A DNA stretch of 64,000 nucleotides. It comes from Clostridia bacterium. Lineage in GTDB: Bacteria > Bacillota > Clostridia > Oscillospirales > CAG-272. Of the stretch, positions 4,993 to 43,182 are shown one piece after another (the first letter of the stretch is position 1; each line of letters opens with the position of its first letter). The DNA lies in NCBI GenBank assembly GCA_017503105.1, contig JAFVTS010000010.1:30419-94418 (forward strand). Direction: 5' to 3'. The notes beneath the pieces were generated by a model. That model searched no databases. It was not told the DNA's origin and saw nothing but the letters and a program-made list of their open reading frames with translations. Both the position numbers and the translations under genes were made by a program.

Positions 4993-6918
<1,926 letters not shown>

Positions 6919-6948: not shown

Positions 6949-7221
6949 TTAGTCGTTATTTATTTCCGTAATTTTTTCCAAAGCTCTTAATTTCAAGCCC
7001 GAGGTGGATATTCTTGAAAGAGAGATCCTCACGCCGTCTTTATCGTCGTAAACCACGAATGAGCGCGGAAGATCCGTGTCGTCGTATTCCAAGAGCCCTT
7101 CTTTTTGCTTTTTGTTTATATAATTTTTTGTGATAGATGAAACGGTTGCGGTATCAAGATCAAAAATACCTATTATTCTATTTTTTCTTATACTTTTACC
7201 GTTACCCACGTGAAGAAACAT
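6949..7221 (-). CDS. remB: RemB/DUF370-family protein
   Basis: MFLHVG...IIGIFDLD...PRSFVV...LSRISTSGLKLR; conserved recF-remB-gyrB position in Firmicutes; GGAGG RBS before ATG 7221. Confidence 0.85.
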   Translation of the reverse strand: MFLHVGNGKSIRKNRIIGIFDLDTATVSSITKNYINKKQKEGLLEYDDTDLPRSFVVYDDKDGVRISLSRISTSGLKLRALEKITEINND

Positions 7222-8308
7222 AATTTCCTCCGACGACCTCTGTGACAGAATCGGCAAATTTCATATTTTCATCGTTTTCACAAGAGGTTATTATTACTTG
7301 CTTTTCTTTAATTCCGTTTATCACGAACGTGCGCCTCTTCTCATCAAGCTCGCTTAAAACGTCGTCAAGAAGATAAACGGGATATTCTCCGCAAATAGCT
7401 CTGTTTACCTCACCCTCGGCAAGCTTCAACGAAAGCACGGCAGACCTTTGCTGTCCTTGAGAGGCAAAGCTTCTTGAATTTTCTCCGTTTATATTTATCT
7501 CAATATCGTCTCTGTGAACGCCAAAGAGAGTAACACCCGCAGCTATTTCTCTTTCTACGCTTGAATTTAAAAGGCTTATATAAGCTTTTTTTATATCTTC
7601 TTTATCTTCAAGCTCTTCGTCTATCCCACTTTTATAAAAGAGAGAAAGCTCTTCTTTTCCGTCTGATATTTTATACTGTATTTCTTTTGAATAAACGTCA
7701 AGGCTTTTCAAATATTCTTTTCTGTACTTATAAATGTAAGAAGCGTATTCAGCCATAGTTTCGGACCAGGAATTAAGCTCGCCTATATCGAAATAAAATC
7801 CTGACTTCGCGTTTTTTAAAATACAGTTTCTGTTTTCAAGAGCTTTTTTATAATCAGCGTATAATTTTAAGTAAGATGGGAAACACTGTGATGCCGCGAT
7901 ATTTAAGAAGCTGCGCCTTTCCTCAGGCCCGTCTTTAATTATTTTCAAATCGTCAGGAGAGAAGAGAACGGTTTTAAAAGAACCTATCATCTCGGTTACC
8001 TTGCTTATTTTATATCCGTTCTTCTTTCTTCTTCTTTCTCTTCCGAAAAATGCGTATTCAAGCGACCCGTCACCCGAAGAATCCTCGTATTCGATAAATA
8101 TACGAAATCCTTCGGCTCCGTTTTTTACAAGCTCCTTTTCATCGGACGTTCTGAACGACCTTCCTCTTGAAAAAATATAAATTCCCTCAAGAGCGTTAGT
8201 CTTTCCTTGCGCGTTTTTTCCGTGAAGGAGGTTTATCCCGGGAGAAAAGCTTATATCGCATTTTTCTATATTACGGAAATTTTCCGCACAAAATCTTTTT
8301 ACTATCAT
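7202..8308 (-). CDS. recF: DNA replication/repair protein RecF
   Basis: NFRN, Walker A GKNAQGKTN, ASQGQQRS, LLDDVLSELD. Confidence 0.97.
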   Translation of the reverse strand: MIVKRFCAENFRNIEKCDISFSPGINLLHGKNAQGKTNALEGIYIFSRGRSFRTSDEKELVKNGAEGFRIFIEYEDSSGDGSLEYAFFGRERRRKKNGYKISKVTEMIGSFKTVLFSPDDLKIIKDGPEERRSFLNIAASQCFPSYLKLYADYKKALENRNCILKNAKSGFYFDIGELNSWSETMAEYASYIYKYRKEYLKSLDVYSKEIQYKISDGKEELSLFYKSGIDEELEDKEDIKKAYISLLNSSVEREIAAGVTLFGVHRDDIEININGENSRSFASQGQQRSAVLSLKLAEGEVNRAICGEYPVYLLDDVLSELDEKRRTFVINGIKEKQVIITSCENDENMKFADSVTEVVGGNYVSSRG

Positions 8309-8316
8309 TAAAGCCT

Positions 8317-9480
8317 TCAGTTAGAAGAATTTTCTTTAAGCTTTATGGGAAGAACTATGTAGATATAATCAAAGTCCTCACTCTTCTCGGCAGCCTCTAT
8401 CGTAATAGCAAGCGTGGGACTCTTCATACCGAGAACTATATTTTCACCCTCGGCAACTCTGACGCTGTTCATTATATAACGGCAGTTGAATCCCATCTCA
8501 ATGTCGCTTCCCTCGTGGACGCATTCTATCTCGTCCTTTACACGGCCGTTTACGGAAGTGGAATTTATATGGAATATCTGATCCTCCGCCTTTATCTTTA
8601 CGTATCCCATATCGCTTCCCTTTATCTTCTCGTCGGCTATTATATTAGCTCTTTCAAGAGAGTCAATAAGCTTTTCCTTATCTATCGTAACGATAATATC
8701 GTTTTCCTTAGGTATGATCCTGTTATAATCTATATACTCGCTGTCGATGGTTCTCGTAAAGAATATCGTTTCTCCCTTTCTTACTATCGCGTGTTTTCTT
8801 GAAACGTATATCTTTACCTTTTCGTTTTCGCCGTCAAGAAGAATTTTTGAAAGCTCGGGAAGTGCGTGACCCGGAATTATAAGGCTTATATCATCAAAAT
8901 TACTGTCGCCTATTGAATAAATTTCACACTTAGCGGTGCATTTTGAAAGTATAAACGTATTGCAGGAAACTACCTCAAGAGTATTTCCTTTTATTTTAAA
9001 GAAAGCTCCGCAAAGCATCTGCCTCGTAGATTGATCGGCAACGGAGTGAATTACCTTTCCTATCATCTTGGCAACGATGTCACTGTCTATCTCAAATCCC
9101 TTATCCGTTACAAGATCGGGGAAGGAGGGGAAATCCTCACCCTTCATACAGGACATAGAGAACGAAGCTCTTCCGCTTCTTATATAACAGTTATAAGAGC
9201 CGTCTATTTCTATCTCTATCTCATCTTCCGAAAGAGATCTTACGGCTTGCATAAGTCTTGTGGCGTTTATTATGTACTTGCCGCCCTCCTCGATCGATTC
9301 CGCGTCTACGGTTATTCTTATACCCTTAGTCATATCGTAAGAGGAAATCCTTATTTTGTCGTCTTCCGTAGTTTCTATAAGAAAGCCCTCTATGTTGGTT
9401 ATGGTGTTTTTCTTTGAAACCGTTCCCATAGCGGTCATAAGCGCGTCTGTGAATACGTCTCTTTTAACTGTTATTTTCAT
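8317..9480 (-). CDS. dnaN: DNA polymerase III beta sliding clamp
   Basis: 387 aa directly downstream of dnaA; EDFPSFP, YIDYNRIIP, GFNCRY, C-terminal IVLPI. Confidence 0.93.
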   Translation of the reverse strand: MKITVKRDVFTDALMTAMGTVSKKNTITNIEGFLIETTEDDKIRISSYDMTKGIRITVDAESIEEGGKYIINATRLMQAVRSLSEDEIEIEIDGSYNCYIRSGRASFSMSCMKGEDFPSFPDLVTDKGFEIDSDIVAKMIGKVIHSVADQSTRQMLCGAFFKIKGNTLEVVSCNTFILSKCTAKCEIYSIGDSNFDDISLIIPGHALPELSKILLDGENEKVKIYVSRKHAIVRKGETIFFTRTIDSEYIDYNRIIPKENDIIVTIDKEKLIDSLERANIIADEKIKGSDMGYVKIKAEDQIFHINSTSVNGRVKDEIECVHEGSDIEMGFNCRYIMNSVRVAEGENIVLGMKSPTLAITIEAAEKSEDFDYIYIVLPIKLKENSSN

Positions 9481-9737
9481 TTTTTAACTTCCTCCTGTGT
9501 GTTTTTTCGGCGAAGCCGTAAAGAATAAATATAATTATATAGGTTGTTGATATTGTTGTAGTGTGTGTCTAAATTGTTTAAAACTCATTTTTCTGTTGAT
9601 TTTGTTCACTTTTTCGGTCTTTAATTTAAACATTTTCTTTGTTCATTTGCGTTTTTAAAAAGATGATTTTTAATGAACAAAAATATAAACGTGTATTAAA
9701 CAGGGTTTTATAAACAATTAAACAAAAAATTGTTGAA
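9481..9737. other. Putative chromosomal origin (oriC) with non-canonical DnaA boxes and AT-rich unwinding region
   Basis: dnaA-dnaN intergenic position; about 12 WWWTNAACA-like 9-mers between 9545 and 9739; tandem boxes at 9566-9583 next to a trinucleotide-like run and an AT-rich stretch (9524-9565). Confidence 0.8.
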
Positions 9738-11174
9738 TTATTTTATATCCTTAACTTCTTTAATGAGAGCTAATATTTCAGCCTCTTTATTTTTAACCGT
9801 TCTCATCATAAGATCCACTTTTTCAAGAGAATATATCATAGTAGAGTGATTACGTCCTCCGAGTGCCTGTCCTATCTCATCAAGAGTAAGCGTGGTTATA
9901 CTCTTAATAATATGAGCGGCAACTTGCCTTGCGTTAGTAATGGTTCCCGTTTTCTTTTTTGATTTTATGTCCTCTACCGAAACGCCGTAGTGCTTGCTTA
10001 CTATCGAAAGTATTCTCTCCACCATAATATCGGGAGGAATATTACCTGGGTCAACAACGGAAATAGCCTCGTCTATTACCGATTTTGTTATCTCCGTGCC
10101 CGAGAAGGTCTTCATAGCGTAGAGCTTCGTTATAACACCCTCAATCTGTCTTATGTTGGATATAAGCCTCTCCGCTATGTAATAAACGAGATTTTGCGGT
10201 ATCTCAAGCCCGAGCGCTTTAGCTTTTTTAAGTATTATAGCGCTCCTAAGCTCGATATTAGGCGGCTGAACGTCAACTATAAGACCCATTTCAAAACGAG
10301 TATGAAGTCTGTCCGTCAGAGGCTTTATTTCCTTCGGTGGACGGTCTGAGGTAAGAACTATTTGCTTTTCACTCTCATAAAGAATGGTGATCGTATTGAA
10401 TATCTCTTCCTGCATAGATTCTTTTCTTGCAATAGACTGTATATCGTCTATCAGAAGAACGTCTGCGGAACGATATTTTTCCTTAAATAAATAGGTGGAG
10501 TTGGTATTTATTGAAATAATAAGCTCGTTTAAAAATTCCTCGCATTTTTTGTAGATTATCTTAAGCTCCGGGTTGTTTTTTCTCAAGTGATTTATAATAG
10601 CGTAAAGAAGGTGAGTTTTACCAAGACCCGAGTTTCCGTGGATAAAGAGAGGGTTGAACTGATTTGAAGACGGCTCCGTAGCAACGGCGAAGCACGCCGC
10701 CTTAGCAAATTTATTAGAATCACCTTCTATGAAATTATCAAACGTATACTGCTCTATCAGCGACTTTTTATCGGTGTTGTTTCCTTTCAGAAAATCGCTG
10801 ATCATCTCAGACTTTTTCTCTTCCTCCAAGCGCTCCCGCTCTTGCTCCTCGGGTGTCTTTACGGGAGTTCTTTTTATTTCGTCTATATAAGAGGGAACGA
10901 GCGGAAAATCCTTCTCGGGATCCTTTTCGCTTTCTATTTTTATGTTTACGCTAAATCCGATAACTTCCTCAAGAGTTTGCTCTATTACGGTGCCGTATTT
11001 TTGAACGAGTATCTTCTTTTTCAGAGGCGACGGAGCTAAAAAAACAGCCTCTTGCTCACTTAACGAAACAAGCTTTAAATTTCCGAACCAAAGATTGAAT
11101 ATCGATTTAGAGGTGTTAAGCTTTTGCTCTATGAGATTCAAAAATTCATTCAGTATATCCGAAAGTTCGTCCAT
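9738..11174 (-). CDS. dnaA: Chromosomal replication initiator DnaA
   Basis: YTFDNFIEG, NPLFIHGNSGLGKTHL, LLIDDIQ, LTSDRPP, NIRQIEG; domain IV ARQ...IG...GGRNHST. ATG 11174 fits the AAAGGAG RBS better than TTG 11183. Confidence 0.97.
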   Translation of the reverse strand: MDELSDILNEFLNLIEQKLNTSKSIFNLWFGNLKLVSLSEQEAVFLAPSPLKKKILVQKYGTVIEQTLEEVIGFSVNIKIESEKDPEKDFPLVPSYIDEIKRTPVKTPEEQERERLEEEKKSEMISDFLKGNNTDKKSLIEQYTFDNFIEGDSNKFAKAACFAVATEPSSNQFNPLFIHGNSGLGKTHLLYAIINHLRKNNPELKIIYKKCEEFLNELIISINTNSTYLFKEKYRSADVLLIDDIQSIARKESMQEEIFNTITILYESEKQIVLTSDRPPKEIKPLTDRLHTRFEMGLIVDVQPPNIELRSAIILKKAKALGLEIPQNLVYYIAERLISNIRQIEGVITKLYAMKTFSGTEITKSVIDEAISVVDPGNIPPDIMVERILSIVSKHYGVSVEDIKSKKKTGTITNARQVAAHIIKSITTLTLDEIGQALGGRNHSTMIYSLEKVDLMMRTVKNKEAEILALIKEVKDIK

Positions 11175-11356
11175 CTTAATCAACTCCTTTATCGGGTAAT
11201 TTAAAATATTTTATATACTAATAGTAAAAGTTATAATATATTATAACATAAAATAAATAAAAAAGCAAGGAAAAAACGGAAAAATATACTTTTCCGTTTA
11301 TATAAAAATGTTAATTTTTTATAAATTTTAAATAATAAACGCGCGTGCGTGATGTT

Positions 11357-29558: not shown

Positions 29559-30410
29559 ATGAAATATAATTTTATCAGATTTCCGGGCGGAAAAAGCAAA
29601 GCTGTGACTCTCAGCTATGATGACGGTGCCTGCAACGACGTTCAATTTCTTGAAACCGTCAATAAATACGGTTTAAAATGCACGTTTAATCTTGTGGGCA
29701 AGAACGTGGAGAAGGGCGAGCCGCTCAGCGCTCAGTTTATTAAAGAAAACATGCTTGCAAAGGGGCACGAGGTCGCAACTCACGGTTACAATCACAGAGC
29801 CCTCAACAGGGTGCGTTCCATTGAGGGCATTCGCGACACTCTTGAATGCCGCCTTGCGCTTGAGCGCGCGCTTGGAATCATCGTGCGCGGTATGGCGTTC
29901 CCCGACGTTTCCGTGAATCGCTCAAGTCAGCCCGACCTTTACGAAACGATCAGGGAATATCTATGCGATCTTGATATTGCTTATGTGCGTTCTGCGGGTC
30001 AAGATAACAACACGTTCTCAATTCCCGACGATTGGCATCAGTGGATCCCCACGGCGCATCACGATAATTCGAACGTTATGGAATACATCGACGAGTTTTT
30101 GAATATGGACGTTGACAAAATGTACATTAGCCGGCGCAATGCAAAGCTCTTCTATCTTTGGGGGCACTCCTTTGAGTTCGAGCGCAAGAATAATTGGGAC
30201 CACTTGGAAGCCATTTGTGAGAAGCTTGGCGGAAAAGATGACGTCTGGTATGCGACGAATATCGAAATCTACAACTACGTTGAGGCGTACCGCCATCTGC
30301 AATACAGCGCGGACGGCACTATCGTCTACAACCCCACGCTCTATGAAATTTGGTTCGACATTGACAAAAAACTCTACCACATAACCCCCGGCGAAACTTT
30401 GAGGATATAA
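29559..30410 (+). CDS. Polysaccharide deacetylase family (CE4/NodB-like) protein
   Basis: KAVTLSYDDG, GHEVATHGYNH, RGMAFP, FYLWGHSFEF, WYATN. Confidence 0.9.
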   Translation: MKYNFIRFPGGKSKAVTLSYDDGACNDVQFLETVNKYGLKCTFNLVGKNVEKGEPLSAQFIKENMLAKGHEVATHGYNHRALNRVRSIEGIRDTLECRLALERALGIIVRGMAFPDVSVNRSSQPDLYETIREYLCDLDIAYVRSAGQDNNTFSIPDDWHQWIPTAHHDNSNVMEYIDEFLNMDVDKMYISRRNAKLFYLWGHSFEFERKNNWDHLEAICEKLGGKDDVWYATNIEIYNYVEAYRHLQYSADGTIVYNPTLYEIWFDIDKKLYHITPGETLRI

Positions 30411-30465
30411 AAGGTATAACACAAAAAACTTGCGGAGCACGCAAGGCGTGTGCTTTTTGCTGTAA

Positions 30466-30557
30466 GGCGTAGCTTCGCGCTACGAGCTCTATACTCGCAA
30501 GGCACGCCTGCCGCAGAAGCTTTAAAGCCTTGGATGTTTTTTGGGGCTCTGTTTTTG
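30466..30557 (+). repeat. Partial dispersed copy of the tRNA-linked repeat
   Basis: GGCGTAGCTTCGCGCTACGAGCTCTATACTCGCAAGGCACGCC...GCAGAAGCTTTAAAG matches the middle of the 225-bp unit. Confidence 0.88.
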
Positions 30558-30636
30558 TAAAAGCCAACCCGAAATTCGTTTAGAAAGCGGGCAGTTCAAC
30601 AAAAAGTGCAGAGCAAACGCGGTAATACGCGTCATA

Positions 30637-30665
30637 TTGACATTTTACAGCTTTGGGTTTATAAT
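30637..30665 (+). promoter_or_regulatory. Consensus sigma-A promoter heading the AT-rich gene array
   Basis: TTGACA (30637)-17 bp-TATAAT (30660). Confidence 0.75.
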
Positions 30666-30669
30666 AAAA

Positions 30670-30873
30670 ATGGAGAATGACCCGAGCGGGCACTTTTTGC
30701 CGTCAGCATTGATAACGGGGTTCTTTATAGTAGCGACAATAGGTTTTGCGGCAACCGTCTATTCCGATTATAAGGATGACGGACAAGTATTTAACGGAAG
30801 CGTATCATCCAAAGATTATGTTGTATATACGATAGTTGACGATGTTATGGCATTAGGAGTAAGAGGAGAATAG
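30670..30873 (+). pseudogene. RHS toxin post-core remnant
   Basis: MENDPSGHFLPSALITGFFIVATIGFAATVYSDYKDDGQVFNGSV: DPxG motif followed by a small-residue hydrophobic segment, as at the RHS core/toxin junction; no YD repeats upstream. Confidence 0.6.
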
Positions 30874-31431
30874 ATGAAAACATATATTTTTGAATGGACA
30901 ATAAAAGATGATAATGGTGATGATCATTTAGTAAAAATCAAAAAGGAGGAGCGGAATCGATATATCTATTTAGATGATATTAAGATCGATATGATTCCTA
31001 ACGATTTTCATCACTCTGAAATTTTCAATTTTGAGTATAATTTCAGCATTTTAAACAAGAACGCAAAAATTATATATAGAGTAAGTAGCAATACAAATCC
31101 AATAGACTTGTTCATAGACGGTCAAAATGTTGATGCGAATGGACGTAAAAATTGTCATGTGCCAAAGCTACCTATTTATGGAATTATATCGCTTGTTTTA
31201 GGATTTGTTTTAACATTTTTTATCGAGATGCAGGTGATTAAACTAAACGATCCTAATTATATCTTATGGGCTATTTGTCCGTGGGGTCCGATGCTGTTTT
31301 TAAGAATGGTAATTAATGCTCCAATAATCGTTCAAATTCCTAAACCGGTAGCGCATATAATAAGAATTATTTTTCAAGCATTTTTGGTAGTTGTATTAGG
31401 ACAAATGTTGTGGTATCTTAAAACAAGATAA
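30874..31431 (+). CDS. Hypothetical membrane protein (candidate orphan immunity protein)
   Basis: AT-rich ORF; AGAGGAG RBS; three C-terminal hydrophobic segments; abuts the RHS remnant stop. Confidence 0.7.
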   Translation: MKTYIFEWTIKDDNGDDHLVKIKKEERNRYIYLDDIKIDMIPNDFHHSEIFNFEYNFSILNKNAKIIYRVSSNTNPIDLFIDGQNVDANGRKNCHVPKLPIYGIISLVLGFVLTFFIEMQVIKLNDPNYILWAICPWGPMLFLRMVINAPIIVQIPKPVAHIIRIIFQAFLVVVLGQMLWYLKTR

Positions 31432-31480
31432 AACTTCTTATGTGTAAAAATATAATAGCACATAAAAACACTATGAAAAA

Positions 31481-31933
31481 ATGTTGAATACATACCGACT
31501 ACAAAAAAGTTTTGTAAAAGCAATAATCGTTATTGGAATTGGTCTATTTATGCTTTGTAATTTGTTTTCTTGTGCAGGACTTTCAGACTGGGAATACGAG
31601 CTCCCCCAAGGATACTGTATAATAAGGGTAAATTCATGTGATATTCACATCGGATCAAATAACGGTGTTAAAGTTGACCGCTTTATAGTGAGTTTTTGCT
31701 ATAATGACAGATATGTTTGTGCAAAACGTGTTGAAGTTTCTGAAAACGATAGTTATGATGATATAATGTCTATGGTTCCTGATGATGCATTTTATTGTAT
31801 AGTTGATACTATAACGAATAAGGTATACGATCGATTAAATACCAAACAGTTCGAAGAGTTGTGTACCGAACTTGAAGTTTATAATCTGTGCGATTGGATT
31901 GATACCACAACAAAGCCCGATGGCGCAAAATAA
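31481..31933 (+). CDS. DUF3997-like lipoprotein (candidate immunity protein)
   Basis: LFSCAGLSDWEYELPQGYCIIRVNS...FYCIVDT...WIDT pattern; lipobox. Confidence 0.65.
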   Translation: MLNTYRLQKSFVKAIIVIGIGLFMLCNLFSCAGLSDWEYELPQGYCIIRVNSCDIHIGSNNGVKVDRFIVSFCYNDRYVCAKRVEVSENDSYDDIMSMVPDDAFYCIVDTITNKVYDRLNTKQFEELCTELEVYNLCDWIDTTTKPDGAK

Positions 31934-31975
31934 CCCAAATGTTGATGTTTCATTATTATAACTACGGAGTGACAT

Positions 31976-32476
31976 ATGAAAAAAACGAAAAAAATTGTAG
32001 GTTTATTGCTTTTATGCTCAATCTTGTTTTTAAGTTCTTGCGAAAATCCTATCATTTACGAACGACAACCGCAAAGATTTCCGGGATCAAAATGGAAGAC
32101 AGAAAATGGAGAAATTTCTTTTGTTGTTGAAGCAATCCATTTGCCGCTTCCTCAATTAGCAGGAACTAACGGATATGGCGATGATCCTAATGTTTATTAT
32201 TTTGCACAAGGCGAGGTTAATGTAAACGGCGAGAAAATAGGTGTATATTTTGAAAATTTTGCCGGCTCATATGATGTATGCATCATTTCGAAAGAAATAG
32301 AAGAACTTGCTAAAACAACTACAGAATATCTTCATCCCGGAGGGGGAGAAGAGGCAAAATATGTAATTGCTTGGATTGATTGTAATTATAAAAGCAAGAA
32401 ACGTTTTGATGCTGTAGTGACAGAAAGCAAATATTTTAATGTTGGAGAAAAATTCGTCTTTAGGCGAGTCGATTAA
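31976..32476 (+). CDS. Hypothetical lipoprotein (candidate immunity protein)
   Basis: MKKTKKIVGLLLLCSILFLSSC lipobox; GGAG RBS. Confidence 0.75.
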   Translation: MKKTKKIVGLLLLCSILFLSSCENPIIYERQPQRFPGSKWKTENGEISFVVEAIHLPLPQLAGTNGYGDDPNVYYFAQGEVNVNGEKIGVYFENFAGSYDVCIISKEIEELAKTTTEYLHPGGGEEAKYVIAWIDCNYKSKKRFDAVVTESKYFNVGEKFVFRRVD

Positions 32477-32494
32477 CAAGCGGATTCCGTCGCC

Positions 32495-32638
32495 CTCGGG
32501 CGTAGCTTTGCGCTCTGTACTTTATGCTTGCAAAGCACGCCTGCCGCAGAAGCTTTAAAGCTTTGGATTTTATTTTTGGCTTTGTTTTTGAATGGACAAT
32601 AAAAGATGATAATGGTGATGATCATTTAGTAAAAATCA
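32495..32638 (+). repeat. Partial repeat copy fused to an exact 54-bp duplicate from the 5' end of the 30874 gene
   Basis: 32499-32590 aligns with 30466-30557; 32585-32638 is identical to 30887-30940. Confidence 0.88.
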
Positions 32639-32738
32639 GCGAAGCATGCAGATATTAATCCTGGAGATCAAGGAAAATCATGGCGGCAGTTTTTGTTAGC
32701 TGGTGCGTTCGGAAAATATTATAATTACGGAGTGACAT

Positions 32739-33398
32739 ATGAGTAAAACCAAAAAAATCATACTATTTATTATAACTATTGTCGTTGTTGCGATTGTAAC
32801 AGCTTGCTCTTCTTTCTTATATATTTTTGTCAATTCTTCTGACGTATCAACTATTGGCAGGATAGAACACGATCAAAATAGGTTCAAGCAAGAACTTATA
32901 AGTGAAGGTGTATTGGACGAAGAGAGTTTCACATCGTGGATCTCTGCCGATTGGACGTATGAATACGGTACTTTGAAAATTGAAAAAAATGATTTGGTTG
33001 CTACCCTTTACATTGAGGCTCATGTAGATGAGTATATTGTTGATCTTTCATTTTTAAAAAATAGCAGTGCTGAAATAACAAATGAAGATAAGCTATTTGT
33101 TACGCAAGTTATCGAATGCGCAAAAGTTGTTTTTGAAAACGATAAGTTTTCTGCAGATATGCTTGAAGCAAAATATGATAAAGGCTATTTGATAGAAAAC
33201 TTTGATTCGAATTGCGTTCAAGAAGAATCGTTCAAAGCTTGCTACTTGAAGGTGCTTAATGATGATTCCGCGTTGGAAAGTGCCCCTGTGTATTACAAGT
33301 ATAAAACCGTAATGCATACCGATAAGATCGTTCTTAAAGAATGTTCTATTCAATATACCCAAAAGGTGTCAGAGGACTTTTATGAGGAGGTGAACTGA
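32739..33398 (+). CDS. Hypothetical membrane-anchored protein
   Basis: N-terminal TM/signal segment; AT-rich; shares a ~25-bp upstream segment with the 31976 gene. Confidence 0.75.
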   Translation: MSKTKKIILFIITIVVVAIVTACSSFLYIFVNSSDVSTIGRIEHDQNRFKQELISEGVLDEESFTSWISADWTYEYGTLKIEKNDLVATLYIEAHVDEYIVDLSFLKNSSAEITNEDKLFVTQVIECAKVVFENDKFSADMLEAKYDKGYLIENFDSNCVQEESFKACYLKVLNDDSALESAPVYYKYKTVMHTDKIVLKECSIQYTQKVSEDFYEEVN

Positions 33399-33400
33399 AA

Positions 33401-34030
33401 ATGAAATTGTTTAAAAACATTTTTATTTTTCTCCTCGCAGGTATTATAGGAGTAATTGGCGGTTTTAGCATTGCCGTTGGGGTAGTATCTTATTCGGGTG
33501 AATATTCGAAGGTAAACGAATATTCAAAAAAATCCAAAGCAGAGCTTAAAGAGCTTTCGGATTTGTTTGCTTCGTCGGGTTACAGTGTGTCAGATATTTC
33601 TACTGATGATGAGAAACATATGATTTTCCTCGTATCATCGGGCGAAAAAAGCATTGATATAAGTTCCGCCAATTTAAACGCAAACGTGGCGGTCACTTAT
33701 AATTCGGATGGAAGGTCGGTCGAAGTTCGTTTCATTGATAAAATGAGCTCTGAAAGTGAAGCTAATATAACAATTTCCGGATATAAAGGTCTCTTGAGTT
33801 TACTTGATACCTTTTATGATGCTAAGGACTTCACTAAGCTGCTTGAACTTTTTGATGCAAGTAAGCTAACGTATGGTAGTAATAGTGTATATGAAATTTC
33901 TGTTCCTACCGATGCTTATAAAAATTATCGCAATTCGGAAGCTGTAACGGTAAGATACGAACTTCAAAAATCCGATACCGGTTATAGTTTGCTGTCTTCT
34001 GTTTCCGTTCAACTGCCGACAGAAAGTTAA
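33401..34030 (+). CDS. Hypothetical membrane-anchored protein
   Basis: N-terminal TM; GAGGAGGTG RBS; followed by hairpin GCCCGAGAGC-CCCGT-GCTCTCGGGT. Confidence 0.75.
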   Translation: MKLFKNIFIFLLAGIIGVIGGFSIAVGVVSYSGEYSKVNEYSKKSKAELKELSDLFASSGYSVSDISTDDEKHMIFLVSSGEKSIDISSANLNANVAVTYNSDGRSVEVRFIDKMSSESEANITISGYKGLLSLLDTFYDAKDFTKLLELFDASKLTYGSNSVYEISVPTDAYKNYRNSEAVTVRYELQKSDTGYSLLSSVSVQLPTES

Positions 34031-34147
34031 ACGGTTAGTTTAGTGCCCGAGAGCCCCGTGCTCTCGGGTGCTTAAATTTCATCGAACGCTTTCCCGTTTT
34101 TTATGAAGGTGCGTTTTTTCGTTTTTCTTCAAAATGCATTTTTCCTC

Positions 34148-34176
34148 TTGACATTTGCCTTCCTATGTGTTATAAT
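34148..34176 (+). promoter_or_regulatory. pyr operon sigma-A promoter
   Basis: TTGACA-17 bp-TATAAT. Confidence 0.8.
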
Positions 34177-34189
34177 ATTAAAAAATAAA

Positions 34190-34305
34190 ATCTTTAATTC
34201 GGTACAGAGATGCCGACAAGGTTTTCTACAAAACGGACGCGCCCTTGCTTGTCGAGGGGGCGGTATTTTGCGGAATCTTGCTCGGAGCGAGGTTCTTTTT
34301 TTTGC
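34190..34305 (+). promoter_or_regulatory. PyrR-binding loop and attenuator
   Basis: CTTTAA..GGTA-CAGAGA-TGCC..AAGG matches the PyrR binding-loop layout; downstream hairpins with T tracts (CGCCCTT..GAGGGGGCG; GAATCTTGCTC..GAGCGAGGTTCTTTTTTT). Confidence 0.8.
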
Positions 34306-34426
34306 AATTTCGCGGTTGTTTTGAGTGCTTTTTTGTCGAAGCTTATCGTCCTTGTACCGTTTCGCGTTATGTTTTTATAATGTAATCGCGGCGTATTTTT
34401 TATAATAATTAGGAAGGAAGACCGAT

Positions 34427-35686
34427 ATGAAAATCATTTTTAAAGATGCGCTCATATACGATGGCGGAGTTATGAAAAAGCAGTCCGTGCTTTTTGACGG
34501 TACCGCTCTTTGTGCTTTTGATTTTGCCGCTGATTCTATCGGCTGTGCCCGTATTTTCGAAAATACAGTTATTCTTCCCGGTTTCTGTGATGTGCACGTG
34601 CATTTCAGAGAGCCGGGTTTTTCTTATAAAGAAACGATGGAGTCAGGAACTCGCGCGGCTGCCGCGGGCGGTTACACCGCAGTATGCACTATGCCGAATC
34701 TCTCGCCCACGCCCGACACGAGGGAGCATCTCGACGAGCAGCTTGAGGCGATAAGGCGCGCGGGCGGCATCACCGTCATTCCTTACGGCACCATAACCAA
34801 AGCCGAGGCGGGTGAGGAGCTCTCCGATATGGCGGATATGGCGAAGGACGTTGCGGGCTTTTCCGACGACGGACGCGGTGTGCAGAGCGAGGAGATGATG
34901 GAGGCGGCAATGCGCCTTGCGAAATCTCTCGGCAAGCCCATCGTCGCGCACTGCGAGGACAACTCGCTTCTTCGCGGCGGCTATATTCACGACGGCGAAT
35001 ACGCGGCGGCACACGGTCACAGAGGAATTTGCTCCGAGAGCGAGTGGGGACCCATCGCAAGAGATATAGAGCTTGTGAAAAAGACGGGCTGCGCGTACCA
35101 CGTGTGCCATATTTCAACGAAAGAGAGCGTCGATATAATCAGGCGCGCAAAAGCCGAGGGCGTAGACGTCAGCTGCGAGACGGGACCGCACTACCTTACC
35201 CTTGACGACTCGTGCCTTCTTGAGGACGGCAGGTTTAAGATGAATCCGCCTCTTCGCGCGGCGGAGGACAGGGAAGCGCTCGTCGCGGGGCTTCTTGACG
35301 GGACTGTTGATATGATAGCGACGGACCACGCGCCGCACTCGGCTGAGGAAAAGTCGCGCGGGCTTGAAAAGAGCCTGATGGGCGTCGTCGGACTTGAAAC
35401 GGCGTTCCCCGTTCTCTACACCAAGCTCGTAAAGCCCGGGGTGATAAGCCTTGAGGCACTTGCGGAGCTTATGTCGAAAAAGCCGAGAGAGCGCTTCGGC
35501 ATCACGTCGGACGCGGGCTTTACCGTCTTTGACGTCGGGGAAGAGTACGAGGTCGACCCCGAAAAGTTCCTTTCCAAGGGCAAGAGCACACCGTTTGCGG
35601 GAATGCGGGTCTTTGGAAAATGTCTTGCGACCGTCACGGGCGGCAGGGCTGTGTATTTAGATGAAAAAATAATAAAAAATATATAA
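34427..35686 (+). CDS. pyrC: Dihydroorotase
   Basis: PGFCDVHVHFREPG, AHCED, YHVCHIST, KMNPPLR, IATDHAPH. Confidence 0.96.
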   Translation: MKIIFKDALIYDGGVMKKQSVLFDGTALCAFDFAADSIGCARIFENTVILPGFCDVHVHFREPGFSYKETMESGTRAAAAGGYTAVCTMPNLSPTPDTREHLDEQLEAIRRAGGITVIPYGTITKAEAGEELSDMADMAKDVAGFSDDGRGVQSEEMMEAAMRLAKSLGKPIVAHCEDNSLLRGGYIHDGEYAAAHGHRGICSESEWGPIARDIELVKKTGCAYHVCHISTKESVDIIRRAKAEGVDVSCETGPHYLTLDDSCLLEDGRFKMNPPLRAAEDREALVAGLLDGTVDMIATDHAPHSAEEKSRGLEKSLMGVVGLETAFPVLYTKLVKPGVISLEALAELMSKKPRERFGITSDAGFTVFDVGEEYEVDPEKFLSKGKSTPFAGMRVFGKCLATVTGGRAVYLDEKIIKNI

Positions 35687-35705
35687 CAAAACGGAGGAAG
35701 AAAAA

Positions 35706-38700
35706 ATGAGCAAACGCAAGGATCTGAAAAGAATTATGATAATCGGCTCGGGCCCCATCGTCATCGGACAGGCGGCTGAGTTCGACTACGCCGGCACGCA
35801 GGCGTGCCTCGCTCTTAAAGAGGAGGGCTACGAGGTAATTCTCGTAAACTCCAACCCCGCCACCATAATGACGGACACCACCATAGCGGACAAGGTATAT
35901 ATGGAGCCTCTGACGCTTGAATATATCGCGAAGATAATAAGATACGAGCGCCCCGACGCCATAGTTCCCGGCATCGGCGGACAGACGGGTCTTAATATGG
36001 CTATGCTTCTTGAGAAGAAGGGCGTACTTAAGGAAAGCGGCGTTGAGCTTCTCGGAACGTCCTCGGAAAGTATCGAGCGCGCAGAGGACAGAGAGCTCTT
36101 CAAGGAGCTTTGCGAGTCTATCGGCGAGCCCGTTATCCCCTCCGATATAGCGAATACGGTGGAGCAGGCTGTTGCGGTTGCGGAGAAGATCGGCTTCCCC
36201 GTAGTTCTTCGTCCCGCCTTCACCCTCGGCGGCACGGGCGGCGGCTTTGCTTACGATCTTAAGGAATTGAAGGAGATTGCAAAGGACGCGCTCTCCGCAT
36301 CCCCCGTTCACCAGGTTCTCGTTGAGAAGAGCGTGCGCGGCTTCAAGGAGATAGAGTTTGAGGTTATGCGCGACAGCGCAAATAACGCCATCACCATCTG
36401 CGGAATGGAGAACATAGACCCCGTCGGCGTCCACACGGGCGACAGTATGGTCGTTGCTCCCATTATGACTCTTAACGACCACGACCTGAAGATGCTCAAC
36501 GATTCCGCGATAAAGCTCATAAAGGAGCTTAAGATAGAGGGCGGCTGTAACGTTCAGTTCGCGCTCAATCCCACCTCTTCCGAATATTATCTTATAGAAG
36601 TAAACCCGAGAGTTTCAAGAAGCTCCGCTCTTGCGTCCAAGGCGTCGGGCTATCCGATAGCGAGAGTTACGGCGAAAATAGCCGTCGGTATGACCCTTGA
36701 CGAGATAGAGGTAGCGGGCACGAAGGCGTCCTTTGAGCCGAGCCTTGACTACATCGTAGCGAAATTCCCGCGTTTCCCCTTTGACAAATTCACCTCCGTT
36801 CCCAATAAGCTCGGCACTCAGATGAAGGCGACGGGCGAGTGTATGGGCATCGGCTCAAACCTTGAGGAGTGCGTGCTCAAGTCGGTAAGATCGCTTGAGA
36901 TCGGCGTTTGCCACCTTCATATGGCGAAGTTTGACAAGAAGACCGATAAGGAAATGCTTTCGTATCTTGAGGAGTTCCACGACGATAACGCCTTCGTCAT
37001 CACCGAGCTGCTTCGCCGCGGCCACACGGTCGAGGAGCTTCACAAGATCACTATGATAACACCCTTCTTCCTTGAGTCATTCAAGAAGATCACGGATATG
37101 GAAAAGACCCTCTCCGAGAACAAGGAGAACGTCGAGGTTCTTAAGACTGCGAAGAAGATGGGCTTCTCCGACAAGTATATCGCGAAGCTCTGGGGCACCT
37201 CGGAGATCTGCGTTGCCGATTTCAGAAAGAAGGCGGGCATCACTCCCGTATTCAAAATGGTTGACACGGCACACGTCGGAGCTTATATACCCTACTTCTA
37301 TTCCTCCTACTCGGATGAGAACAAGTCCATCCTTACCGACAGAAAGAAGGTCATCGTTCTCGGCGCGGGTCCCATCCGTATCGGACAGGGCGTTGAGTTC
37401 GACTATTCTACCGTTCACGCGGTAAATACCATACGCAACTCGGGCTACGAGGCTATAATCATAAACAACAACCCCGAGACCGTTTCGACCGACTACACCT
37501 GCTCGGACAAGCTCTATTTCGAGCCCCTTACAACCGAGGACGTAATGAGCGTTATCGAGTTTGAAAAGCCCGAGGGCGTCATCGCTTCCCTTGGCGGTCA
37601 GACCGCTATAAACCTCGCGGCGCCTCTTGCTGAGCGCGGTGTAAAGATCATCGGCACCGATTGCGAGGCGATAGACAGAGCGGAGAACCGCGACGCCTTT
37701 GAGAAGATCCTTGAGGAGCTCAACATCCCTCAGCCGAAGGGTCAGGCGGTAACGAAGATAGAGGACGGCGTTAAGGTTGCCGAGAGGATAGGCTACCCCG
37801 TTCTCGTTCGTCCCTCCTTCGTCCTCGGAGGAAGAGCTATGCAGCTCGTCGGAAACGAAAAGCAGCTCCGCCACTACCTGAGAACCGCGGTTGAGATAGA
37901 CGAGGACAAGCCCGTTCTCGTTGACCACTACATTCAGGGCAAGGAGGTCGAGGTCGACGCCATCTGCGACGGACAGGACGTCTTCGTCGCGGGTATTATG
38001 GAGCTCGTTGAGCGCACGGGCGTTCACTCGGGTGACTCCATCAGCGTTTATCCCTCCTTCTCGATTTCGGACAAGGTAAAGGGCAAGATACTTTCTTATT
38101 CAAAGATGCTCGGTCTTGGTATCGGCATTATCGGTCTTTTCAACATTCAGTTCATCGTTGATGACAAGGAAGACGTTTATATCATAGAGGTCAACCCCCG
38201 TTCTTCAAGAACCGTTCCCTTCCTCTCGAAGTCCACGGGCTACAGCCTTGCGGACATTGCGACCGAGGTCATCCTCGGCAAGTCCTTGAAGGAGCTCGGC
38301 ATCTTCACCCTCTATCCCGAGGAGAAGAAGAGATGGTACTGCAAGGTGCCCGTATTCTCCTACAAGAAGATCAACGGCATCGACGCTTACCTCTCACCCG
38401 AGATGAAGTCCACGGGCGAGGCTATCGGCTACGACGACGACCTTAACCGCGCGTTCTACAAGGCTCTTCAGGCGTCGGGTATGACGGTGCAGAACTACGG
38501 CACGGTGCTCGTCACAATCGCAGACGCGGACAAGCCCGAGGCCCTTCCGCTCATCCGCCGTTTCTATAACCTCGGCTTTAATATCGAGGCAACCGAGGGC
38601 ACGGCGAAGTTCCTTAAGGATAACGGCATCAGAACGAGAGTTAAGCAGAAGATCGGCGAGGGCTCGGACGACATTCCCGAATCGATAAGGGCAGGGCACA

Positions 38701-38879
38701 TTGCTTACGTCATAAACACGAGCGACATCGGCTCCTCCGATCAGCAGAAGGACGGCTACGAGATAAGAAAGCTCGCCGTCGAAACCAACACCACGATGTT
38801 TACATCCCTTGACACGGTAAGAGTTCTTCTTGACGTGCTTGAGGATATAACCATCACTATCTCTACCATCGACGCGTAA
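35706..38879 (+). CDS. carB: Carbamoyl-phosphate synthase large subunit
   Basis: GSGPIVIGQAAEFDYAG, duplicated ATP-grasp halves (IEVNPRVSRS, IEVNPRSSRT), MGS-like C-terminus. Confidence 0.98.
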   Translation: MSKRKDLKRIMIIGSGPIVIGQAAEFDYAGTQACLALKEEGYEVILVNSNPATIMTDTTIADKVYMEPLTLEYIAKIIRYERPDAIVPGIGGQTGLNMAMLLEKKGVLKESGVELLGTSSESIERAEDRELFKELCESIGEPVIPSDIANTVEQAVAVAEKIGFPVVLRPAFTLGGTGGGFAYDLKELKEIAKDALSASPVHQVLVEKSVRGFKEIEFEVMRDSANNAITICGMENIDPVGVHTGDSMVVAPIMTLNDHDLKMLNDSAIKLIKELKIEGGCNVQFALNPTSSEYYLIEVNPRVSRSSALASKASGYPIARVTAKIAVGMTLDEIEVAGTKASFEPSLDYIVAKFPRFPFDKFTSVPNKLGTQMKATGECMGIGSNLEECVLKSVRSLEIGVCHLHMAKFDKKTDKEMLSYLEEFHDDNAFVITELLRRGHTVEELHKITMITPFFLESFKKITDMEKTLSENKENVEVLKTAKKMGFSDKYIAKLWGTSEICVADFRKKAGITPVFKMVDTAHVGAYIPYFYSSYSDENKSILTDRKKVIVLGAGPIRIGQGVEFDYSTVHAVNTIRNSGYEAIIINNNPETVSTDYTCSDKLYFEPLTTEDVMSVIEFEKPEGVIASLGGQTAINLAAPLAERGVKIIGTDCEAIDRAENRDAFEKILEELNIPQPKGQAVTKIEDGVKVAERIGYPVLVRPSFVLGGRAMQLVGNEKQLRHYLRTAVEIDEDKPVLVDHYIQGKEVEVDAICDGQDVFVAGIMELVERTGVHSGDSISVYPSFSISDKVKGKILSYSKMLGLGIGIIGLFNIQFIVDDKEDVYIIEVNPRSSRTVPFLSKSTGYSLADIATEVILGKSLKELGIFTLYPEEKKRWYCKVPVFSYKKINGIDAYLSPEMKSTGEAIGYDDDLNRAFYKALQASGMTVQNYGTVLVTIADADKPEALPLIRRFYNLGFNIEATEGTAKFLKDNGIRTRVKQKIGEGSDDIPESIRAGHIAYVINTSDIGSSDQQKDGYEIRKLAVETNTTMFTSLDTVRVLLDVLEDITITISTIDA

Positions 38880-38890
38880 AGGAGAACGGT

Positions 38891-39625
38891 TTGATGAAGG
38901 ACTCCGTTTTTAAGGTTCTTACAAACAAAAAAATAGCAAAAAACACTTATGAAATGACTCTCAGGGGCGACGTGAGCGACATCAGCGCCCCGGGTCAGTT
39001 CGTGAACGTAAAGCTTGACGGCTTTTATCTTCGCCGTCCGATTTCCGTGTGTAACGTAGAGGGTGACGTTCTCACTCTCATATATAAGGCGGTAGGACGC
39101 GGAACGGAGCTTATGGCAGAGATGACGGGCGGCGAGGAGCTTCTTACCCTTACGGGTCTTGGCAACGGTTATGACACGAAAAAGAGCGGAGATAAGCCTC
39201 TTCTTGTCGGCGGTGGCGCAGGCGTGCCTCCTATGTACCTTCTTTGCCGAGAGCTCGTAAAGGAGGGCAAGCATCCGACGGTCATTCTCGGCTTCGGCTC
39301 TTCTGACGAGGTCTTTTACGAGGATGAGTTTAAGGCTCTCGGCGCAGAGGTCATAGTCACTACCGTCGACGGCTCTTACGGAATAAAGGGCTTCGTTACC
39401 GACGCGTTTTCGGGTCTTTCTCCGACGTACTTCTACACCTGCGGTCCTGAGCCAATGCTGAAGGCTGTGTACGATAAGTCGGAATGCTCGGGCAGCTTCT
39501 CATTCGAGGAGCGTATGGGATGCGGCTTCGGCGCTTGTATGGGCTGCTCTTGCAAAACGAAATACGGAAACAAGCGCATCTGCCGCGACGGCCCCGTGCT
39601 TGAAAAGGAGGAGATAATATGGTAA
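38891..39625 (+). CDS. pyrK: Dihydroorotate dehydrogenase electron transfer subunit
   Basis: PGQFV, LRRPIS, GGGAGVPP, EERMGCGFGACMGC...CRDGPV [2Fe-2S]. Confidence 0.96.
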   Translation: MMKDSVFKVLTNKKIAKNTYEMTLRGDVSDISAPGQFVNVKLDGFYLRRPISVCNVEGDVLTLIYKAVGRGTELMAEMTGGEELLTLTGLGNGYDTKKSGDKPLLVGGGAGVPPMYLLCRELVKEGKHPTVILGFGSSDEVFYEDEFKALGAEVIVTTVDGSYGIKGFVTDAFSGLSPTYFYTCGPEPMLKAVYDKSECSGSFSFEERMGCGFGACMGCSCKTKYGNKRICRDGPVLEKEEIIW

Positions 39626-40530
39626 ACACTAAAGTAACCCTCTGCGGCGTTGAAATAGACAACCCGATAATCCCCGCGAGCGGCACGTTCGGCTTCGGCT
39701 ACGAGTTCGCGGAGCTTTACGACATCAATGTTTTAGGCTCTCTTTCCTTTAAGGGAACGACTCTTGAGCCGAGATTCGGCAACCCCACCCCGAGGATCGC
39801 CGAGTGCCCCGAGGGAATGCTCAACGCCGTCGGTCTTCAGAACCCCGGTGTTGACAAGGTGAAGGAGTGCGAGCTCCCGAAGCTGCGTGAGGTCTTTCAT
39901 AAGCCCGTAATGGCAAACGTATCGGGATTCTCGGAGTACGAGTACGTCACCACGGTAGAAAAGCTCGATTCCGAGCCCGACATCGCGTGGTTTGAGGTCA
40001 ACATCTCCTGCCCCAACGTTCACGGAGGCGGAATGAGCTTCGGAACCTCGTGCCAGAGCGCGGAGGCTATCACGAGGGCTGTAAGGCGCGTCACGAAAAA
40101 GCCTCTTATAATCAAGCTCTCGCCGAACGTCACGGACATCGTATCCATCGCAAAGGCGTGCGAGGCGGGCGGAGCTGACGGTATCAGTCTTATAAACACT
40201 CTTCTCGGTATGAGAATAGATCTGAAGAAAAGACGTCCCATACTCGCCAATACGACAGGCGGCTACTCTGGTCCCGCGGTTCTTCCCGTCGCGGTAAGAA
40301 TGGTATATCAGGTATACGATGCGGTGAAGATTCCTCTCGTGGGAATGGGCGGCGTGTCGCGTGCTGAGGACGTTATAGAATTTATGCTCGCAGGAGCAAC
40401 GGCGGTCGAGGTCGGCGCGGCAAATCTCGTCGATCCCTTCGCCTCTAAAAAGATAATCGACGAGCTTCCCCTCGTTATGGAGAAGTACGGAATAAAAAAT
40501 CTTAGTGAAATAATAGGAGGAGCGCACTGA
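39619..40530 (+). CDS. pyrD: Dihydroorotate dehydrogenase 1B catalytic subunit
   Basis: [34 protein letters not shown]. Confidence 0.97.
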
Positions 40531-41228
40531 TGGGACGCGACGTTATAATTGCTTGTGATTTTGCAAGCGCAGAGGATACCTTTAAGTTTCTTGACAAATT
40601 CGAGGGAAAGAAGCCGTTCGTAAAGATCGGAATGGAGCTTTACTACGCTGAGGGTCCCTCTATCGTAAAGGAGATAAAGAAGAGAGGGCATAAAATATTC
40701 CTTGATCTTAAGCTCCACGACATTCCCAACACCGTTAAAAAGGCGATGGCGGTTCTTTCGAATCTTGACGTTGATATGACCAACCTCCACGCGAGCGGCA
40801 CTAAGAGAATGATGGAGGCGGCAATCGAGGGCCTGACGAAGCCCGACGGCACTCGCCCCATTCTTATCGCTGTAACCCAGCTCACCTCCACCGACCAAGA
40901 GAGTATGGAAAACGATCTTCTTATAAAAGAACCCATTGACAAAGTAGTTATGCACTACGCGTCATGTGCGAAGGCTGCGGGGCTCGACGGCGTCGTTTGC
41001 TCACCCCTTGAGGCGGGCAAGGTTCACGACACCTGCGGCAAGGACTTCGTTACCGTTACCCCCGGCGTCAGATTCGCTGACGGTGACAAGGGCGACCAGA
41101 AGAGAGTTATGACTCCCGAGGAGGCAAAGAAGATAGGCTCCGATTACATCGTCGTCGGCAGACCTATAACAGCGGCTGAGGATCCCGTCGCGGCATACGA
41201 AAGATGCTGCCGTGAGTTCATCGGCTAA
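40530..41228 (+). CDS. pyrF: Orotidine-5'-phosphate decarboxylase
   Basis: [30 protein letters not shown]. Confidence 0.97.
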
Positions 41229-41260
41229 TAAAAGATCAAACGTATGAGGAGATAAGAAAA

Positions 41261-41917: not shown

Positions 41918-41950
41918 GTTTCTAAAACTCCCGAAAGGAAGCTCTTTAAA

Positions 41951-43012: not shown

Positions 43013-43182
43013 AAAAGCAATAGTTATCGGGTCAATGCCCGAAGACGAAAGACGCCGAGGTAAATTGAATTTTTAGTTATAAAAGACCCGCTATCTTAAA
43101 TGACAGCGAGTCTTTTTTCTTTGTATAAAATTAGTATTTTTGATAAAATATCCAAATTGGATCCGAGCGATTTATTGTACCG

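Follow-up and report, generated by a model that had tools for sequence, protein, structure and literature searches.

The stretch of DNA analysed here, referred to below as the window, comprises 64,000 nucleotides from the genome of a Clostridia bacterium of the order Oscillospirales (assembly GCA_017503105.1, contig JAFVTS010000010.1, positions 30,419 to 94,418 of the forward strand). On its minus strand the window carries dnaA, the gene for the replication initiator, at 9738..11174, and dnaN, the gene for the beta clamp, at 8317..9480. Between the two open reading frames (ORFs) lies a spacer of 257 bp (9481..9737, minus strand; GC 0.249) that is the predicted replication origin, oriC. This spacer is populated by DnaA-box words with A at position 6 (TNAACA, hereafter A6) in place of words with C at that position (TNCACA, hereafter C6), and the DnaA protein encoded beside it differs from that of Escherichia coli at most of the residues that read the box. 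Here, we describe this origin and its initiator, and ask how far the two have changed together among related Clostridia.

The genome (coded G000) is represented by a 2.60 Mb assembly of 44 contigs with 48.7% GC and 96.5% completeness. It contains one DnaA match, and no second dnaA gene was found in it. The dnaA gene encodes 478 aa from an ATG at 11174, which is preceded 9 nt upstream by AAGGAG; its ORF opens with a TTG at 11183. The product matches the Pfam families Bac_DnaA (8.3e-62, 208.6 bits against a cut-off of 23) and Bac_DnaA_C (4.6e-22, 78.3 bits against a cut-off of 31.5), and DnaA_N was also found. All three domains of the Pfam family DNA_pol3_beta are present in DnaN. The closest relative in our comparison, G015, has a DnaA that is 87% identical.

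Read from the dnaA end, the spacer begins with the box AATTCAACA (9731..9739, minus strand), which overlaps the dnaA stop codon and is identical in G015. Four boxes on the plus strand follow: AATTAAACA (9716..9724), TTATAAACA (9708..9716, which has one base in common with the box at 9716), TATTAAACA (9694..9702) and TAATGAACA (9671..9679). Next come AAATGAACA (9640..9648, minus strand), which reads AAATCAACA in G015, so that position 5 differs and A6 is retained, and ATTTAAACA (9624..9632, plus strand), whose G015 counterpart likewise differs at position 5. The remaining sites are all on the minus strand. AAGTGAACA (9603..9611), with G at position 3, stands in 9-bp tandem with AAATCAACA (9594..9602), and TTTTAAACA (9575..9583), which is TTTTCAACA in G015, stands in 9-bp tandem with the box-like word ATTTAGACA (9566..9574), with G at position 6. 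Nearest dnaN is a tandem pair at 9545..9562, made up of the degenerate box ACTACAACA (9554-9562) and ATATCAACA; the block that they form, ACAACAATATCAACAACC, is identical in G015. Adjoining this last box is an AT-only run of 22 bp, AAAGAATAAATATAATTATATA (9520..9541, no strand assigned), which is largely conserved in G015.

A first-pass annotation of the window, made from the sequence alone, had reported twelve nine-mers in this spacer. All twelve are where it placed them, on the strands it gave, and the exact 9-bp tandems it described are the pairs 9566/9575 and 9594/9603. It had written them all as WWWTNAACA, a formula that suits ten of the twelve, the departures being ATTTAGACA at position 6 and AAGTGAACA at position 3. 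Position 6 is A in 11 of the 12 listed boxes and, as had been claimed, C in none. A scan of the 257-bp spacer returned neither TTWTNCACA, again in agreement with the first-pass annotation, nor the shorter TNCACA. Elsewhere, the boxes are loosely defined: positions 1-3 are merely A/T-rich, TT occupies positions 1-2 in 2/12, and position 5 is C in 3/12.

Since the spacer is 75% A+T, such words could in principle be chance products of AT-rich DNA. Against a chance model of 2000 dinucleotide-preserving shuffles of the spacer itself, however, WWWTNAACA occurs 9 times (mean 1.04, sd 0.97, maximum 5) and TNAACA 11 times (mean 2.36, maximum 8), counts that no shuffle reached (0/2000 in each case). Sibling words used as controls (WWWTNAAAA, WWWTNAACT, WWWTNTACA and WWWTNAATA) are all at chance in the spacer. 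Further, among 390 real genomic windows of 257 bp with GC no higher than 0.30, only five exceed three matches, and all five overlap this locus. No other WWWTNAACA cluster of the genome is as dense: the spacer has 10 per 300 bp, against 5 in the next cluster. The A6 density of the spacer, 4.28 per 100 bp, is the highest among the 231 spacers compared below. Local shuffles, sibling words and real AT-rich windows together rule out chance or base composition as the cause, and the probability that we would still assign to such an explanation is vanishingly small.

Canonical boxes do not form a rival cluster in this genome. Searching the whole assembly returned at most 3 TTWTNCACA per 300 bp, these being T-run words, and at most 2 when TTATCCACA was allowed one mismatch. 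The best candidate cluster, at C12:587-778, was rejected as three T-run words. Within the window, TTWTNCACA occurs five times, always inside 31441-43016. The first-pass annotation had staked its reading on enrichment over a shuffled background and on the lack of a canonical cluster elsewhere, and both expectations were borne out. Where an oriC cluster is taken to need at least three significant boxes, the spacer offers 11-12 of the A6 kind, and the canonical definition gives 0.

We therefore consider it highly likely that chromosomal replication starts in the dnaA-dnaN spacer of this organism, an uncultured gut or rumen Clostridium of the Oscillospiraceae/Ruminococcus kind. GC skew is compatible with an origin here and is weakly informative: within the window it runs from -0.10 to -0.16 left of 10 kb, is about 0 at 10-26 kb and is positive beyond, and the cumulative minimum falls at 40-55 kb of contig C32, on which dnaA occupies 40.2-41.6 kb, in a genome of 44 contigs. 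DnaA-trios are described in PMC8287927, in the part that treats them, as runs of three or more NAN repeats no farther than 16 bp from a box. No clean array of this kind was seen by eye in the spacer; the stretch after the last box offers only a weak TAT-AAT-TAT, two of whose three units are common to G015. The tandem pair at 9545-9562 may be the core box pair of an unwinding module, like that of the basal unwinding system (BUS) as outlined in PMC8287927, and the AT-only run at 9520-9541 is a candidate DNA-unwinding element. The origin would thus be laid out as about 12 DnaA boxes, leading to a conserved tandem pair and then to an AT-only unwinding stretch beside dnaN.

Upstream of dnaA, the intergenic region (11175-11356) spans only about 180 bp and holds one A6 word and no C6 word. 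Consequently, the origin looks one-part, and it is probably confined to the dnaA-dnaN spacer, in contrast to Bacillus and Clostridioides, whose origins are two-part. The upstream A6 word is the single AAATTAACA at 11309..11317 (minus strand), to which the first-pass annotation had drawn attention. It is indeed present, although as an isolated match at background level, given that 26 of the 36 WWWTNAACA matches in the window lie outside the spacer. It could be an autoregulatory site.

The initiator itself departs from the canonical form in domain IV, which reads SKKK...TLDEIG...GGRNHSTMIYS, just as first reported. Aspartate tends to pair with cytosine and asparagine with adenine. Using HMMER alignments to the E. 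coli (1J1V) and Bacillus subtilis (8BTG) structures to equate residues, we find K at R399, D at P423, N at D433, H at H434, S at T435 and Y at H439. Five of six base-contact positions have thus changed (R399K, P423D, D433N, T435S and H439Y), and only H434 is kept. The codons concerned all lie on the minus strand: Lys in place of the minor-groove residue R399 is encoded at 9951..9953, Asp in place of P423 at 9879..9881, and GGRNHSTMIYS, the start of the recognition helix, at 9828..9860. Within the latter, the Asn codon AAT that corresponds to D433 occupies 9849-9851 and is one transition away from GAT; S (=T435) is encoded at 9843-9845 and Y (=H439) at 9831-9833. In E. coli, base-specific contacts are attributed to R399, P423, D433, H434, T435 and H439 in the relevant sections of PMC2533591 and PMC7561715. 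According to the portion of PMC5742627 on box recognition, TnCACA is read by helix 434-451 and TTA by R399 in the minor groove. The Clostridioides difficile paper (PMC7561715), in its passage on these six contact residues, calls them conserved among all Firmicutes. The guanine opposite C6 stays reactive to dimethyl sulphate under E. coli DnaA, as the section of PMC5043019 on this experiment has it, so that an acidic side chain could be directed at the cytosine itself.

To place these changes in context, we collected 268 dnaA loci, of which 259 differ in their DnaA sequence. In 231 of these the dnaA-dnaN spacer could be used, the remaining 28 having been dropped for want of dnaN in the fetched stretch, for a spacer shorter than 140 bp or containing N, or for a DnaA fragment of less than 300 aa. 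The 231 loci comprise 154 from the window's order, including seven named loci from metagenome-assembled genomes (MAGs) that were placed by similarity, and 77 from other orders of the class. Enrichment in pooled loci is expressed against mononucleotide shuffles. A domain IV with P423, D-H-T and H439 was counted as fully canonical, a condition shared by 57 loci. Co-variation was assessed by phylogenetic generalised least squares with Pagel's lambda, taking log((A6+0.5)/(C6+0.5)) as the response in the 218 loci with at least three sites, on a FastTree phylogeny of the last 330 DnaA residues minus the helix columns.

Asparagine at residue 433 is found in 29 of the 231 loci and has had 11 or more separate origins; on the DnaA tree, no fewer than 12 changes of this trait are counted. 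Where it is present, A6 words are 4.8-fold and C6 words 3.2-fold enriched, which reverses the order seen with fully canonical DnaA (2.6 and 7.8). Pooled counts of A6 to C6 are 152:52 in the 29 N433 loci against 171:256 in the 57 canonical loci. The effect of N433 holds with masked spacer GC in the model (beta 1.37, se 0.32, p = 3e-5), with the third-codon-position GC of dnaA (GC3) as covariate (p = 9e-6), after removal of the window's own lineage (p = 2e-4) and when sites are defined as nine-mers (p = 2e-4). Across three bands of dnaA GC3, the A6 fraction is 1.00, 0.98 and 0.67 in N433 loci against 0.49, 0.45 and 0.17 in canonical ones. In contrasts between sister clades, the A6 log-odds are higher in the N433 clade in 9 of 11 independent cases (Wilcoxon p = 0.019).

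The other replacements fared differently. A change of T435 to S or A has a smaller effect (beta 0.67, p = 0.007) within the order that is not significant in the whole set. The combination found in the window, N433 with S or A at 435, is accompanied by 82 A6 to 17 C6, compared with 70 to 35 for N433 with T435. Loss of R399, of P423 or of H439 had no effect in the phylogenetic regression of the 218 loci. R399K, loss of P423 and H439Y were accordingly rejected as drivers, the K and the Y being found also in the DnaA of Mycobacterium tuberculosis. Thus, the first-pass annotation, which had expected box usage to track a whole suite of substitutions, was borne out for D433N and, to a lesser degree, T435S/A, and P-to-D, H-to-Y and R-to-K showed no association.

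Residue 433 also varies in other ways. Many DnaAs of the order carry His433 (as RHH, MHH or QHH in families f7, f17 and f21; for example L116, L121, L054 and L139), some with Met or Gln for R432, and the spacers of these families stay C6-rich. Pooled loci with neither D nor N at 433 are 1.9-fold enriched in A6 and 5.7-fold in C6. Not every change at this residue moves box usage. A further variant is found within the same genus at locus L019 (G022:C7:86001-90437), whose DnaA helix reads SCQHSNVILA (R432C, D433Q, T436N). Its 254-bp spacer has no C6 box and carries six ACTGACA and two ATTGACA, that is, G at position 6. Gln433 of this species may represent a different re-coding, towards G, at the same residue.

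Whether the A6 words are DnaA boxes at all bears on everything that follows. In the pooled loci, the flanks of A6 sites are those of C6 sites (T1, T2, W3, C5 and G10), and at position 6 an excess is seen for A and C alone, G and T standing at 0.8 to 1.4 times the expected number. In G015, orthologous boxes retain A6 while position 5 varies (AAATGAACA vs AAATCAACA, TTTTAAACA vs TTTTCAACA). The most over-represented spacer words in the relatives, TCAACA, GTTGAA and TTGAAA, together give TTTTCAACA, which in these relatives stands where other lineages have TTTTCCACA. It might be argued that TNAACA is bound by a different protein of the origin, for instance one that regulates sporulation or the nucleoid, and that DnaA binds elsewhere or is barely specific. 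Spo0A binds oriC in B. subtilis, and the organism is a sporulating one with SpoVAC and SpoVAD genes beside dnaA. However, A6 and C6 sites share their flanks and take each other's place at given loci from one relative to the next, position 5 is free as it is in DnaA boxes, and the spacer contains no other enriched word and no canonical box. Because of the shared flanks, the restriction of position 6 to A and C and the conservation of the boxes in G015, a different protein is very improbable, and binding of DnaA to the A6 boxes can be predicted with high confidence.

A second cluster of boxes allows the pattern to be followed away from the origin. The second-best A6 cluster of the genome (C14:164927-165064) consists of TTTTCAACA, TTTTTAACA, two copies of TTATCAACA, and TATTCAACA. 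It lies in a 437-bp intergenic region (C14:164757-165193, or L269:2358-2794; GC 0.375) upstream of a gene for a UvrD/PcrA-like helicase. The cluster probably serves as a promoter regulated by DnaA or as a site that titrates DnaA. In the 11 nearest species it has been kept, at about -310 to -180; no conservation was found outside this group, the other N433 species of the genus (G004, G006 and G011) included. In the two N433 species that have it, the A6:C6 counts are 5:0 (G000) and 3:0 (G015). In the nine species with D433 or S433 they are 2:5, 5:1, 1:4, 6:1, 1:3, 1:3, 1:1, 1:1 and 4:3, so the D433 proteins of the genus evidently use both box types. Some species with such a mixed cluster have a near all-A origin spacer (7:0 in G010 and 8:1 in G013). 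Taking both clusters together, the N433 lineage has 26 A6 words and no C6 word. The loss of C-boxes from the two clusters counts as one evolutionary event, not two.

Several observations weigh against residue 433 as the cause of these patterns. N433 is neither necessary nor sufficient, and the lineages that have it remain enriched in C6. Its family f20 (KNHTT) includes A6:C6 counts of 3:6, 3:5 and 4:4, and the N433 locus L052 (RNHAT, spacer GC 0.51) has 2 A6 to 7 C6. The sign test on sister clades, with L253 and L015 as the exceptions, gives p = 0.065, and binary independent-pairs tests, run for every residue, are underpowered; for N433 they find 3.6 pairs going the same way against 0.2, of 9 (median p = 0.25). 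All-A origins, defined as those without C6 and with at least five A6, number 18 among the 231 loci; D433 is present in 8 and H433 in 2, so that 10 of the 18 do without N433. An identical helix, RDHSTIVYA, goes with A6:C6 of 11:1 and of 2:5. Moreover, the tree was built from DnaA, the protein under study; the word counts include chance words, at about 1.3 A6 and 0.5 C6 per spacer; and they cover the dnaA-dnaN spacer only, so that C-boxes upstream of dnaA in two-part origins are missed.

These points agree with another account, under which the preference of DnaA is unchanged, with C at least as good as A, and A6 words are ordinary boxes of lower affinity that accumulate in AT-rich spacers. In this view, drift in a fast-evolving lineage would have produced the all-A origin and the changes in domain IV independently of each other. 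Indeed, A6 is a general second-choice box across Clostridia, about 2.5-fold enriched, with values of 2.5 to 2.6-fold for canonical and other D433 DnaAs, and the 47 canonical loci outside the order have 162 A6 to 172 C6 words. Since A6 is enriched with canonical DnaA, all-A origins could arise without any change of protein. A lower GC brings more A6 (-0.58 log-odds per 0.1 masked spacer GC, p = 8e-10), spacer GC predicts box usage as strongly as residue 433 does, and the window's spacer is AT-rich. The box consensus given for Mollicutes in PMC3322544, where that paper tabulates it, also permits C or A. Against this account stands the N433 effect, which survives both GC covariates and the removal of the window's lineage. 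In addition, family f27, with a canonical DnaA, keeps its C6 boxes in AT-rich spacers (A6:C6 of 3:10 at GC 0.29 in L123, and 1:10 at GC 0.30 in L143), and this internal control makes clear that AT-richness alone does not convert boxes. The genome as a whole has 48.7% GC, of the 11 species with the cluster upstream of the UvrD-like gene the two with N433 alone have it in all-A form, and C6 is absent from both clusters in G000 and G015. On balance, tolerance combined with drift is a serious possibility for the window's lineage, though one that we consider less likely than not.

We instead lean slightly towards a change in the protein. The ancestral DnaA of the order may have accepted both C and A at position 6, and the canonical DnaA of other Clostridia appears to accept A6 too, if less readily. 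A single G-to-A change (GAT to AAT) would have turned Asp433, where the recognition helix begins, into Asn in the lineage of the window, with T435S in addition. Most likely, D433N and T435S turned a preference for C over A into one for A over C, and C-boxes would then have been lost from both DnaA-box clusters of the genome. On this reading, which we hold to be somewhat the better supported for this lineage, residue 433 would read position 6 of the box, and the direction of the affinity change would follow from its replacement. We speculate, more tentatively and with some doubt, that D433N may be a one-residue recognition switch, acquired on 11 or more occasions by Clostridia of the gut and rumen and each time pulling boxes from C to A at position 6, and most strongly in company with T435S. 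The shift in box usage, judged from sequence counts, is a quantitative one. The first-pass annotation had proposed that initiator and origin co-evolved a shifted specificity, with the origin written in a non-canonical code. The idea of a shared shift partly stands, in that D433N tracks A-box dominance, but N433 is neither required for such origins nor enough to produce them, and the notion of a distinct code falls, since A6 is 2.6-fold enriched with canonical DnaA and the Mollicutes consensus already allows A.

The minus-strand gene order is dnaA-dnaN-recF-RemA-like-gyrB, with recF at 7202-8308, the RemA-like gene at 6949-7257 and gyrB at 4993-6918. The place upstream of dnaA where rpmH is usually found is taken by spoVAC/AEB-like and spoVAD genes, likewise on the minus strand; their presence beside dnaA marks the organism as a spore-forming Firmicute. 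Farther along the window, the region 30000-34000 has a GC of 0.36-0.37, against about 0.49, and a positive GC skew. It contains three of the five TTWTNCACA words of the window (31441, 31718 and 32200) and could represent an AT-rich cluster of genes or DNA of foreign origin.

The way in which DnaA recognises its box is commonly regarded as almost invariant, and origin finders look for TTATCCACA with mismatches. A large order of gut and rumen Clostridia varies at the six contact residues, and D433N repeatedly accompanies origins dominated by, or wholly made of, A-boxes. If the proposed switch is real, it would provide a simple residue-to-base rule, natural and portable, for the universal bacterial initiator, together with a natural series in which to study joint change in an essential protein and the many sites it binds. 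It would also improve origin prediction in MAGs, because a search for canonical boxes finds no box in this origin. Among the papers available to it, our literature search returned no earlier reports of D433N/A6 co-variation or of Ruminococcaceae/Oscillospiraceae origins, and covered neither the supplements of PMC8287927 nor the species-specific lists of DoriC, which could list A6-type boxes. Within that search, the contact-residue variation in a Firmicute order, the enrichment of A6 across Clostridia and the recurrent residue-to-base co-variation appear to be new.

In many respects, the origin described here resembles the canonical TTWTNCACA system of E. coli, B. subtilis and C. difficile. Both have a nine-base site with invariant T4, A7, C8 and A9 and a free position 5, boxes clustered beside dnaA, an AT-rich stretch that in the window is a candidate for unwinding, and the same DnaA fold and helix-turn-helix. 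The differences lie in position 6, where 11 of the 12 boxes here have A and none has C, and in the replacement of 5 of the 6 contact residues. Of those replacements, K and Y at the R399 and H439 columns are shared with M. tuberculosis DnaA (3PVP), and R399K and H439Y are therefore not peculiar to the window. The mycobacterial protein, unlike that of the window, keeps D433, T435 and P423, and its box is given as YWRTCCACA, with C at position 6, in the comparison of boxes in PMC5043019.

Lineage-specific DnaA boxes are already known from Mollicutes, Epsilonproteobacteria and Thermotoga. The consensus is TT(T/A)TC(C/A)ACA in Mollicutes and TT(T/A)T(C/T)(C/A)ACA in Acholeplasma (Cordova et al. 2002, as cited in Table 2 of PMC3322544, a review of phytoplasma genomes), and the functional origin of Mollicutes lies downstream of dnaA (PMC4351888). 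As far as that table goes, these AT-rich relatives of Firmicutes likewise tolerate A at position 6. There, A is an alternative to C, whereas here C is never seen, the genome has 48.7% GC, and a specific residue change goes along with the boxes. The Mollicutes-type box fits the oriC boxes at A6 in 11 of 12 and mostly not at TT and C5, and it fits the cluster upstream of the UvrD-like gene well, in TTTTCAACA and in TTATCAACA twice. Boxes of Epsilonproteobacteria, in the account that PMC5043019 devotes to them, require T at position 5, which is attributed to substitutions at the N-terminus of helix 5 of their DnaA. This too is a lineage-specific change in how the box is read, although it concerns another box position and other residues, and it is backed by footprinting where ours is known from sequence. 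The box of Thermotoga maritima, mentioned in PMC7561715 as a 12-mer, points to a natural re-specification of DnaA in which, as far as that mention goes, the motif has changed wholesale; in the window's lineage, the change concerns a single position.

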